Shown in pieces: positions 58,294 through 59,422 of a stretch of DNA of 64,000 bases. The number at the start of each line of letters is the position of its first letter. The stretch's first letter is position 1. Source of the DNA: Escherichia coli (GTDB lineage: Bacteria; Pseudomonadota; Gammaproteobacteria; Enterobacterales; Enterobacteriaceae); NCBI RefSeq assembly GCF_016903815.1, contig NZ_CP069973.1; one strand, given 5' to 3'. The position numbers and the translations under genes were made by a program. A model generated the notes under the pieces. It saw only the letters and a list, made by a program, of their open reading frames with translations. It did not search any database and was not told the DNA's origin.

Positions 58294-58378
58294 TTTTTTA
58301 CGCATAAACTGCTTCAATTCCGGTATGCTTCGCAAAGCTGTATCGCGAGGCGAACCAAGCGCATGAACTTTACCAGAA

Positions 58379-58405
58379 CCCGCCATTGAGCGGGTTTTGT
58401 TGTTT
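58379..58405 (+). terminator. Rho-independent terminator downstream of the Q-like gene
   Basis: CCCGC-CATTGA-GCGGG followed by TTTTGTTGTTT. Confidence 0.6.
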
Positions 58406-58514
58406 CTGGTACTGGTGAACCTGATGTTTCATTTCTGGAGCGCGATTCCTGGCGGAATACCTAGAATCGAGACATTCTGGTAAAATTGTTTTCAGTACAG
58501 GATGTGGAGGTGAG

Positions 58515-59084
58515 ATGAGAGAACTACCTAAAGATTATTTTTTAGGAGTAGATGATGAGCTCGTCGATTATCTTGAAAAACAAGGGGAAGAGACGATACG
58601 AGAGATTCATCTTTCTAACAAAACCAATGTTGAGAATGGATACAAACTTCTGAACATTCAGATTGTTGGAATTGGTTCATCTTTTTTATTGCTGACACAG
58701 AAAACTAATTTCGATTTTCTCACCGCCGGAATTACCACATTTACATTACTATGGACATGGTGCGCCATTTACTTGGTATGTACTGGTTTATCTGTGAAGG
58801 TTAGGGGCCTGATCAATGCCCCTCCTGATCATCTATATCATGAAAAATATAAGGATATGGAGCCCTCGAGCTTTAAAATATTCGCTGATGCAGGATATTT
58901 AGGACCTGATAAGTTATTGCCGCTTATACGAAGGTATCGCCTTGTTGACTTGAGTGATACAGCAAGAGAGTTACTGTTGGAAAATGAGAAAATCCGCACG
59001 AGTCTCGATAAAGCAAGGATGTATACCATCCTTGCTCCGGTAGCGGCGATGTTTATCTCGGCTGTTTTTTTATATGTTCAATGA
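58515..59084 (+). CDS. Low-GC membrane protein of unknown function (189 aa), moron candidate
   Basis: GGAGGTGA SD; three predicted TM segments; about 38-40% GC. Confidence 0.6.
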   Translation: MRELPKDYFLGVDDELVDYLEKQGEETIREIHLSNKTNVENGYKLLNIQIVGIGSSFLLLTQKTNFDFLTAGITTFTLLWTWCAIYLVCTGLSVKVRGLINAPPDHLYHEKYKDMEPSSFKIFADAGYLGPDKLLPLIRRYRLVDLSDTARELLLENEKIRTSLDKARMYTILAPVAAMFISAVFLYVQ

Positions 59085-59214
59085 CTGAGTCGGCAGAATC
59101 TCCAACAAAAACACGACGTGTAGCAAAGTCTGTAGTACTTTGTGTTGGAGTTGGTTTTGGTGCCACGGGTTGCTGAGGTTTATTTTCACCTTGTGGTTTG
59201 TTTTTTTCAGACAT
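59053..59214 (-). CDS. Small Pro/Gln-rich ORF (53 aa) convergent with and overlapping the membrane-protein gene
   Basis: AAGAGGA SD; MSEKNKPQGENKPQQPVAPKPTPTQSTTDFATRRVFVGDSADSVIEHIKKQPR. Confidence 0.4.
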   Translation of the reverse strand: MSEKNKPQGENKPQQPVAPKPTPTQSTTDFATRRVFVGDSADSVIEHIKKQPR

Positions 59215-59307
59215 AAAAATCCTCTTTGTTTGAATTGTTACTTTTGGCGATTTAACGATATCAAACACGAGTATATACCGCCAGAAGCTTAATCTGGCAC
59301 TCCATCT

Positions 59308-59333
59308 GGCCCCGGCATGTCCCGGGGCTTTTT
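59308..59333 (+). terminator. Strong rho-independent terminator before the lysis cassette (tR'-like)
   Basis: GGCCCCGG-CATGT-CCCGGGGC followed by TTTTTCGTTGTT. Confidence 0.7.
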
Positions 59334-59422
59334 CGTTGTTAGGCTCTGGAAACATCCTCGACTTCTTGTTAGCAAGCCTGAGAGCCTGAATCTTACACTT
59401 AGCACCATCCGAACTCTCGGAG

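Follow-up and report, generated by a model that had tools for sequence, protein, structure and literature searches.

A convergent two-gene cassette between the Q-like gene and the holin of a Rac-type prophage: a candidate membrane effector with a small proline-rich partner

The stretch of DNA analysed here, referred to throughout as the window, comprises 64,000 nucleotides of Escherichia coli (contig NZ_CP069973.1). It holds the Rac prophage locus with its chromosomal flank, an identity that rests on Rfam matches at gathering level to RalA, the Rac-specific small RNA which serves as antitoxin of the Rac toxin RalR, and to FnrS and McaS. At about 58411–59340 (~0.9 kb) there is an autonomous two-gene accessory cassette, or moron, placed after the late-promoter and terminator unit of the Q-like antiterminator gene and before the holin gene of this Rac-type lambdoid prophage. 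The limits of the cassette proper are approximate and were set by sequence comparison. The larger gene encodes a membrane protein of 189 amino acids (aa), and a smaller gene, convergent with it and overlapping its 3' end, encodes a hydrophilic protein of 53 aa (Table 1). A sequence-only reading of this region, made without database searches, had described the two open reading frames (ORFs), a Shine-Dalgarno sequence for each, their 32-bp overlap and their low GC content, and all of these were recovered. The first ORF starts with ATG, and the Shine-Dalgarno sequence of the second is AAGAGGA. The GC content is 38.9% in the large gene, 40.1% in the small gene and 41% over the cassette, versus 48.2% for the window. 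Taken together, the comparative data given below indicate that the two genes are a real, co-inherited pair.

Table 1. Coordinates of the cassette, its flanks and the small RNAs that identify the prophage
Feature	Position	Strand	Basis and remarks
Large gene, 189 aa three-helix inner-membrane protein	58515..59084	+	WP_001208722.1; phrog_11870; ORF, Shine-Dalgarno, homologues, AlphaFold model
Small gene, 53 aa hydrophilic protein, Pro/Gln/Lys-rich	59053..59214	-	WP_152948782.1; phrog_14506; convergent, 32 bp overlap with large gene
Promoter-like -10 element of large gene, TGGTAAAAT	58478..58486	+	TAAAAT at 58481-58486; ~30 nt before ATG
Shine-Dalgarno sequence of large gene, GGAGGTGAG	58506-58514	+	Precedes the ATG
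Conserved block upstream of small gene, TGATATCGTTAAATCGCCAAAAGTAAC (minus-strand reading)	59237..59263	-	Extended -10-like TGnTATCGT (reverse complement of 59255-59263), then start of 5' untranslated region
Inverted repeat GCCAGA-N7-TCTGGC	59280..59298		Between small-gene promoter and downstream terminator
Intrinsic terminator, GGCCCCGG-CATGTC-CCGGGGCT then TTTTT	59308..59337	+	-16.4 kcal/mol, z -2.4
tR'-type intrinsic terminator	58374..58405	+	Hairpin and T-run; -18 kcal/mol, z -4.65
Candidate late promoter (pR'-like), TTGGCT-18-TATATT	58228..58257	+	Inside 3' end of Q gene; consensus scan only
Q-like late antiterminator, DUF1133 family, GTG start	57751..58293	+	PGAP; phrog_753 'anti-termination protein Q-like', E 2e-78; flank, outside cassette
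Lambda-family holin	59432..59773	+	TIGR01594, 139 bits vs cutoff 55; PGAP; flank
R-type lysozyme	59777-60253		After holin
Rz/Rz1	60250-60714		After lysozyme
RalA	43166-43344	+	Rfam
FnrS	38739-38856	+	Rfam, gathering level
McaS	31000-31095	-	Rfam, gathering level

The product of the large gene carries hydrophobic segments at about residues 46–62, 69–92 and 168–188, in agreement with the three transmembrane (TM) segments of the sequence-only reading and with the membrane helices of the AlphaFold model described below. A word-index search recovered ~100 homologue clusters, nearly all of exactly 189 aa, down to ~46% identity, from Escherichia, Klebsiella, Citrobacter, Morganella, Providencia, Proteus, Serratia, Yersinia, Pantoea and Sodalis; all are unnamed and carry no Pfam domain. 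At E<=1e-3, 100 proteins of 160–200 aa were recovered when a profile was run against 1.84 billion representatives, further iteration brought in betaproteobacterial members, and the homologues keep their length down to ~20% identity. Among 50,697 deposited phage genomes the gene for the large protein is present in only five, none of them from a model phage. Truncated versions of 104–130 aa are also present in the databases (P0033, P0084). In one phage record, PP818812.1 (Actinobacillus phage vB_Apl-pPE4), positions 16424–17173 hold an E. coli-type Q late-promoter segment at 94.9% nucleotide identity together with a 53% identical homologue of the large protein; the phage was deposited as infecting Actinobacillus pleuropneumoniae, its sequence is enterobacterial-looking, so that its host assignment or the origin of the record may merit a second look.

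Neither protein falls into a family of assigned function; the sequence-only reading had likewise recognised neither. The annotation pipeline PGAP labels both genes as hypothetical protein, and PHROGs places both in families of unknown function (phrog_11870 and phrog_14506). Pfam gave no match to the window's large protein even at E<=10, nor any significant match when 68 close and distant relatives were searched one by one, and the SieB and Rex families of Pfam were not matched by the large protein. NCBIfam matched neither protein, and PADLOC-DB 2.0.0 (2023), in which systems described after 2023 are not covered exhaustively, gave no match to either at E<=1. Homology to a characterised lysis accessory protein, named in the sequence-only reading as an outcome that would count against it, was not found in PHROGs, NCBIfam or Pfam. 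No paper was found naming WP_001208722.1 or its peptide sequence, nor one describing the cassette, in a literature search that did not cover post-2023 defence systems exhaustively.

The small gene was compared across 89 loci, made up of the window, genomic loci and 80 contigs from IMG/VR. An intact minus-strand ORF of 48–64 aa, overlapping the 3' end of the large gene by 19–35 nt, is present in 87 of them; the two exceptions are one frameshift in a run of A and one sequence containing N. The window's ORF (MSEKNK...KKQPR) shares with the others an MS-x-x-NKP start, a low-complexity middle rich in proline and glutamine, and a C-terminal motif D-F-x-x-x-R-x-x-V-G-[DN]-S-A-[DE] followed by lysine and arginine. 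Insertions and deletions occur in multiples of three. The median pairwise ratio of nonsynonymous to synonymous substitution rates (dN/dS) in the non-overlapping part is 0.25, versus 1.1 and 1.4 in the two other frames of the same nucleotides, which shows that the ORF is under frame-specific purifying selection and that the peptide matters. The protein has neither a signal peptide nor a hydrophobic segment. PGAP starts the gene in the window at a GTG at 59268, giving 71 aa, and in strain KFu019 at the ATG of the 53-aa form. The 71-aa form was rejected because the added segment is not maintained as a reading frame, a stop interrupting it in one locus (L074), and because it contains the conserved promoter block.

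The arrangement extends well beyond close relatives. Where the large protein is 17–30% identical, in Pasteurellaceae-like, Herbaspirillum and Burkholderia prophages among others, a convergent ORF encoding a basic, proline-rich protein of 30–48 aa still overlaps its gene by 13–70 nt. Such an ORF was seen in L094 (MSESKKNSNENKRPQAPQNK...KVFLDSAEPQ), in L095/96 of Herbaspirillum (MSDKPKIPQPEPVYRTP..., at 5093–5218 of L096), in L097/98 of Burkholderia (MSQDRPTIPQPTPGRREQ...), in L101 (MSQQDRPTIPQPQPSRREQ...) and L103 (MATSNNKPATPRPNPQPVYRTP...), and also in L093 and L090; in L089, the exception, the counterpart is ambiguous. Since the convergent overlap has held across such low identity, the two-gene arrangement is ancient and is what defines the cassette. 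The small partners of betaproteobacterial and other distant relatives (L095/L096, L097/L098, L101, L103) share P-x-IPQP and PVYRTP motifs. These we take to resemble the PVYIPQPRPPHP core of the apidaecin-type proline-rich antimicrobial peptides, which act on the ribosome, a likeness that may be a coincidence of composition.

The sequence-only reading had the cassette bracketed by two hairpin terminators. Both exist and both lie on the plus strand, and the downstream one does close the cassette; the upstream one, of tR' type, belongs instead to the Q unit. The segment 58294–58410 (105–116 nt) occurs at 90–99% identity in ~1,200 E. coli genomes and in two phages that are without the cassette. 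Because it goes with the Q gene in these cassette-free genomes, the upstream hairpin is, on this comparison, a left boundary marker and no component of the cargo. In lambda, pR' and tR' form the arrangement of late promoter and terminator, and by analogy the promoter-like sequence at the end of the Q gene, given its position relative to the hairpin, may be the late promoter; the segment 58228–58405 can thus be read as a Q-dependent late promoter with its terminator. Two sibling Rac-type prophages share this Q gene and hairpin, and downstream of them carry tRNA-Thr, tRNA-Gly, further small genes and another holin (essD).

That the region is cargo in the slot between Q and the holin, as first proposed, is borne out by the elements of its own, the low GC and the presence/absence pattern. 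Promoter-like elements, a terminator, atypical base composition, insertion between backbone genes and presence/absence polymorphism are all found here, the activity of the promoters being predicted from conservation. The cassette occurs in 222 of 5,426 complete E. coli genomes (~4%), many human clinical isolates among them, whilst a Q unit of the window's type carries different cargo in ~1,200 others. Prophages of Klebsiella, Citrobacter, Serratia, Morganella, Providencia, Proteus, Yersinia, Pantoea, Herbaspirillum and Burkholderia also harbour it.

Each gene appears to have a promoter of its own, a function suggested by conserved sequence, with transcription predicted to start at about 58493 on the plus strand and about 59248 on the minus strand. 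Among 35 unique regions preceding the large gene, whose proteins are 46–100% identical, 25 have TAAAAT 34–42 nt before the ATG; for the small gene, 30 of 37 such regions contain TGnTA[TC]n[GC]T. The 27-nt block which holds the latter is more conserved than either coding sequence and is near-identical where the large proteins are ~53% identical; a promoter alone may be insufficient to account for this. On folding, no stable RNA structure was found in the 5' untranslated region (UTR) of the small gene, so that RNA folding does not explain the conservation of the block either, and Rfam has no family in 58100–59600. Complementarity in trans between the two 5' UTRs was considered and rejected: the single match in the window is 7 nt long and, by eye, is not kept in Serratia loci. 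The inverted repeat that follows is present in many loci, not all, with a two-sided variant (GCCAGT/ACTGGC) in a Morganella locus (L002). It forms a hairpin in the minimum-free-energy fold of 59264–59340 and may serve as an operator or, in RNA, as a hairpin of the large-gene 3' UTR.

The downstream terminator is predicted to insulate the holin from transcription of the cassette, and an analogous plus-strand terminator was seen in most of the diverse loci inspected by eye. Since it lies beyond the promoter of the small gene, a transcript of the large gene should cover the whole small gene in antisense. There is no evident minus-strand terminator, so the transcript of the small gene should likewise run antisense into the large gene, and with antisense overlap in both directions mutual interference is to be expected. 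The cassette is furthermore co-oriented with the late operon and will thus be read through by Q-modified polymerase, which would raise the level of large-gene message and occlude the promoter of the small gene.

Structure prediction of the large protein, a check which the sequence-only reading had called for, gave a confident all-helical AlphaFold2 model from a 41-sequence alignment (predicted local distance difference test, pLDDT, 81.7). An N-terminal helix (14–62) runs into TM1, TM2 spans residues 68–92, a loop and short helices occupy 93–133, and a helix of residues 134–188 ends as TM3. In the predicted topology the N-terminal helix is cytoplasmic, TM1 and TM2 form a hairpin, ~70 residues then lie in the cytoplasm, and TM3 is C-terminal. 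When compared with AFDB50 by Foldseek, the model matched its own family first and then proteins annotated as SLATT (E 1.7e-5 to about 2.4e-3, TMq 0.68–0.80), and it thus has, by Foldseek, the helical TM hairpin flanked by cytoplasmic helices that marks the SLATT fold. Other neighbours included 'Holin-X' and 'phage holin family' proteins and a Pycsar effector. No experimental SLATT structure was among the top matches in the PDB. A fold search of the viral structures in BFVD gave no match at E below 0.3, which argues against phage proteins of SieB, Rex or Imm type. SLATT proteins have been described as predicted pore-forming effectors of defence systems (bioRxiv 10.64898/2026.04.29.721553, citing Burroughs 2015).

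At the level of the fold, then, the large protein looks like a SLATT-type protein. It shares with these effectors the N-terminal helix leading into a TM hairpin and then a long C-terminal helix, and they too are small membrane proteins found on mobile elements and in defence neighbourhoods. It differs from them in its third, C-terminal TM helix and in the absence of sequence-level membership. It differs also in its company. None of the signal-generating partners of SLATT proteins (SMODS/CD-NTase, SLOG, TIR, reverse transcriptase) is conserved beside it; the sole conserved neighbour is the small proline-rich ORF, so that in place of a nucleotide-signal or reverse-transcriptase partner there is a convergent protein of ~30–55 aa. 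One further observation concerns the small protein. Its residues 28–44 (59083–59133, minus strand), with the motif DF-x-x-x-R-VFVGDSA-[DE], align best to EkFS-LFVGDAENAF, residues 261–274 and C-terminal element of a genuine SLATT_3/SLATT_1 protein (L095, 6302–7165, minus strand), at an hhalign E of 0.022 and a probability of 2%, which is not significant. As a lead, the small protein might mimic the FS-x-FVGDAE element at the C-terminus of canonical SLATT_1 domains, or be that element in detached form.

A possible contact between the two proteins was sought by folding the large protein, a (GGGGS)6 linker and the small protein as a single chain, with 25 paired rows in the alignment (A4). The resulting model has only two beta strands, residues 95–98 of the large protein, in the loop after TM2 that carries a nearly invariant R97, and residues 35–38 (VFVG) of the small protein. 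As the model has no other strands these two most likely pair, the output itself giving no contacts. The block of the small protein that holds the motif has a pLDDT of 60–65, versus below 45 for the rest, and in the fusion the blocks within residues 91–110 of the large protein rise from 56/64 in the monomer to 68/75. With an N-in topology the loop after TM2 would be cytoplasmic, which fits a small protein with neither signal peptide nor hydrophobic segment. These observations suggest, with moderate support, that the small protein binds the cytoplasmic juxtamembrane loop of its partner. When variants of the small-protein motif were set by eye against the loop after TM2, no clear pattern of covariation emerged.

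The contexts of distant relatives are diverse. One of them (L094) comes directly after a cI-type S24 repressor gene, where lambda carries rexAB, and its small gene follows cI at 16 nt in the same orientation. Another, at a P2-type hotspot of a P2-like prophage, follows the portal gene at 800 bp from a ThsB-TIR and SLATT_1/3 pair, with another TIR gene (L095); these TIR and SLATT genes are a separate, adjacent system. Others lie on an island with GmrSD and AlpA; close to BrnT/BrnA and HicB, between Bro-N and HNH/terminase genes; within a Mu-like tail/baseplate cluster; and on a cargo island of a tail region with a PemK toxin. In the Enterobacterales, the Q neighbours belong to at least four unrelated families (DUF1133/phrog_753, PF06530, PF03589/phrog_127, phrog_304) and the holin neighbours to several (lambda type, Phage_holin_2, Phage_holin_3_1), and some loci have further cargo next to the cassette, such as a RelE-like toxin or a Rha-like regulator. 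Such a spread speaks against a tie to one lysis system and favours a portable module of biological conflict.

From these lines of evidence we tentatively prefer, at somewhat less than even chances, the view that the large protein is a latent membrane effector which is held or gated by its small cytoplasmic partner and serves in abortive infection, exclusion or addiction. Its fold and neighbourhoods suggest a membrane-permeabilising effector of SLATT type. In the lysogen, each gene would be transcribed from its own promoter, as the conserved -10-like elements and flanking terminators suggest, the convergent transcripts would repress each other, and transcription would in this way set the ratio of the two proteins. 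The small protein would bind the loop after TM2 in the cytoplasm through its R-x-x-V-G-D-S-A motif and keep the membrane protein inactive. Its supply might fail when an infecting phage shuts off the host, when Q-driven read-through in the late phase silences its promoter, or, in the variant placed after cI, when transcription from pRM is lost. The freed effector would then depolarise or permeabilise the membrane, with abortive infection or exclusion of the competitor as the outcome, and toxin/antitoxin-like addiction and earlier triggering of the holin might be side effects. At a site just upstream of the holin, self-activation late in the cycle would be harmless to the resident phage.

Put together, this would amount to an undescribed and widespread two-component immunity or addiction switch of prophages. 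A SLATT-like pore would be gated by a tiny proline-rich protein encoded antisense to it, convergent transcription, driven by Q read-through or by pRM/cI, would pick the partner that is made, and competing phages would be aborted in the lysogen, with the pore safely unleashed only in the prophage's own late phase. So complete a scheme we hold, as a whole, to be less likely than not. The guess of the sequence-only reading, an exclusion or abortive-infection function or a toxin/partner pair, is the stronger for the SLATT-like fold, the promoter-like elements, the contexts of the relatives and the fusion model; it has gained no sequence-level link to a known defence family, and the function is still a matter of inference. 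One strain offers an anecdotal observation in its favour. In E. coli KFu019 (L104, 3234–4520) an IS3 insertion interrupts the large gene at its 3' end and leaves the small gene intact, a pattern consistent with the large protein being the harmful partner.

Several findings weigh against the gated-effector view. The function is drawn from sequence, fold and context. None of the 68 family members matches a SLATT Pfam model (SLATT_1 to SLATT_6 and related), the best related match being one to PycTM at E 0.047. Profiles of the family (alignments A2 and A3), compared by hhalign with a SLATT_3 and SLATT_1 family alignment (A5) that represents one low-diversity SLATT subfamily, gave probabilities of 3.9% and 0.6%. 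Owing to this negative comparison SLATT membership was set aside, and the likeness is kept at fold level. The five fusion models range in mean pLDDT from 58.9 to 71.5, contain an artificial linker and are of moderate confidence. Neither promoter has a conserved -35 element. In L014, an IMG/VR contig, the small ORF is frameshifted by one base and the large gene is intact, possibly through a sequencing error; if real, it would argue, as a single anecdote, against a strictly essential antitoxin. Finally, in every annotated locus of the Enterobacterales (the window and L002–L008) the cassette stands upstream of a holin/lysis cassette, with Q directly upstream in seven of the eight (the exception being L002), and Q-like neighbours occur in three of seven further IMG/VR loci sampled. 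Such a position is equally expected for a lysis accessory.

The first alternative builds on this position. The large protein could be an auxiliary holin-like or antiholin-like membrane protein made from the Q-antiterminated late transcript and concerned with the timing of lysis, with the small convergent gene damping it until late transcription overrides. Co-orientation with the late operon, read-through by Q-modified polymerase and the holin-annotated Foldseek neighbours all agree with it. The cassette, on the other hand, adjoins complete lysis cassettes whose holins belong to several unrelated families, which makes a specific partnership with a holin unlikely. Most prophages with the same Q and lysis genes are without it, and relatives are found far from lysis genes, next to cI, a P2 portal gene, a Mu tail cluster and the GmrSD island. 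It has promoter-like elements and a downstream terminator of its own, and the large protein ends in a TM helix without the charged C-terminal tail typical of holins. We consider a lysis accessory unlikely. The proposal that the large protein is itself the holin of the region was rejected: it ends in TM3 (...FLYVQ) with no tail, a TIGR01594 holin is encoded 350 bp downstream, and no holin hidden Markov model in PHROGs, NCBIfam or Pfam matches it.

Two further alternatives are less probable again and, to our minds, about equally so. According to one, the large protein serves lysogenic conversion outside any conflict between phages, as a channel for ions or small molecules or as an envelope-stress factor, and the small gene acts solely to control its expression. 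The build of the cassette, that of a classic moron with low GC and its own promoter and terminator, would suit such cargo, as would trkG, another host-benefit membrane gene, which stands just after the lysis genes of the same prophage, and the PADLOC search found no defence family. The nearest structural neighbours are nonetheless effectors of conflict systems, distant relatives recur beside TIR+SLATT, GmrSD, PemK, BrnT/A and HicB, and a tiny partner that has a docking motif and is so strictly co-inherited fits better with toxin/partner logic. According to the other, the partner is mainly an RNA: the convergent transcript would be a cis-antisense regulator, acting as in type I toxin/antitoxin (TA) systems or through transcriptional interference, and the short ORF would be secondary or a translated leader. 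A convergent 3' overlap of 13–65 nt that is conserved in every lineage, a large-gene mRNA fully antisense to the small gene by virtue of a terminator past its promoter, a promoter/5'-end block more conserved than the coding sequences and the antisense transcription expected into the large gene would all be accounted for. What this leaves unexplained is the coding character of the small gene, with its dN/dS of 0.25 versus more than 1 in the other frames, its conserved amino-acid motif, its triplet indels and its strong Shine-Dalgarno sequence; AlphaFold, moreover, docks the motif on the large protein, which at 189 aa is unlike the type I toxins, peptides of <60 aa. Action at the RNA level is compatible with the gated-effector model, and the two modes are not mutually exclusive. 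The idea that these are chance or decaying ORFs without function, to which their hypothetical annotation and the lack of family or literature matches might lend colour, is effectively refuted by the comparative data, namely length-conserved homologues of the large protein to ~20% identity, a small ORF intact in 87 of 89 loci and under purifying selection, and conserved regulatory elements.

Parallels can be drawn with a number of known systems. Both the cassette and the lysogen-expressed exclusion modules of the immunity region, such as RexAB of lambda (with RexB as membrane channel and RexA as sensor) and SieB, are prophage cargo with a membrane component proposed to collapse the membrane potential, and like RexAB the cassette has two genes; the relative after cI, moreover, occupies the exact slot of rexAB, with its small gene placed for co-transcription with cI. 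No sequence or fold similarity to these systems was found, however, in Pfam or BFVD, the partner here is tiny, the genes are convergent and not in an operon, and the cassette of the window lies in the late and not the immunity region. Toxin/antitoxin-type modules of abortive infection that pair a membrane toxin with a convergent antisense partner include hok/sok, and the prophage-borne txpA/ratA and bsrG/SR4 of Bacillus subtilis. With these the cassette shares its prophage location and a convergent overlap that predicts antisense control of a membrane-active protein. It is nevertheless not classed as a type I TA system, having a protein of 189 aa in place of a peptide of <60 aa and a selected coding gene as antisense partner. 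Type II TA systems differ in their operon organisation, and the small protein has no recognisable DNA-binding fold; binding to its partner is suggested by the fusion model only. The cassette resembles most a SLATT-type effector module, in one context rexAB, and in architecture the prophage type I systems, and by their defining features it can be assigned to none of them.

Morons in the Q–S slot of lambdoid phages include stx in Stx phages, nmpC in DLP12, cspB/cspF in Qin, and tRNA genes. The cassette resembles them in occupying the slot right after tR', in its predicted promoter and its terminator, in atypical GC and in presence/absence polymorphism, and the sibling Rac-type prophages hold their tRNA-Thr and tRNA-Gly genes in this same slot. 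It differs in its uncharacterised content and in having two convergent genes in place of one that is co-oriented. We regard the cassette as a candidate membrane-effector module carried by prophages, unusual in its minimal partner and in the layout of its regulation; it is well supported and widespread, and its function we infer. If the gated-effector view is correct, a compact anti-phage or addiction module of ~0.9 kb would be present in ~4% of complete E. coli genomes, SLATT-like effectors could be controlled by a minimal protein partner and convergent transcription and not by nucleotide-signalling or reverse-transcriptase sensors, and the lambdoid Q–S slot would be another place in which to search for defence cargo. 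An influence on the host range of therapeutic phages and on the lysis timing of induced prophages would then be possible. Whatever the function, a convergent proline-rich ORF of 30–55 aa that is strictly conserved in very distant relatives is an unexplained regularity.

The segment 56.8–62.3 kb is 100% identical in many complete genomes, that of strain 7/2 (L001) among them, where PGAP gives the gene order DUF1367, DUF1364, DUF1133 (Q-like), two hypotheticals, lambda-family holin, GH24 lysozyme, Rz-type lysis protein and trkG. The Q gene and the lysis cassette are intact in this copy of Rac, unlike those of K-12. The same prophage has a type I toxin/antitoxin locus, hok/sok, at 55280–55573 (Rfam sok, 101 bits), some 3 kb before the cassette, with a 41-aa Hok/Gef ORF at 55448–55573. 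Between the DUF1971 and DUF1367 genes, ~840 nt at 56022–56864 have a GC of 28–33% and no annotated gene, the ORFs being short and unconvincing; the stretch may be regulatory or may be what is left of a further cargo slot. In a sibling Rac-type prophage of E. coli WP5-S18-ESBL-07 (L100, 1–1158), a gene annotated 'S8 family anti-phage peptidase IteS' stands just upstream of the DUF1367-DUF1364-Q block. Its position indicates a second variable cargo slot in the Rac-type prophage family, of which the equivalent in the window is occupied by KilA-N, hok and DUF1971 genes.

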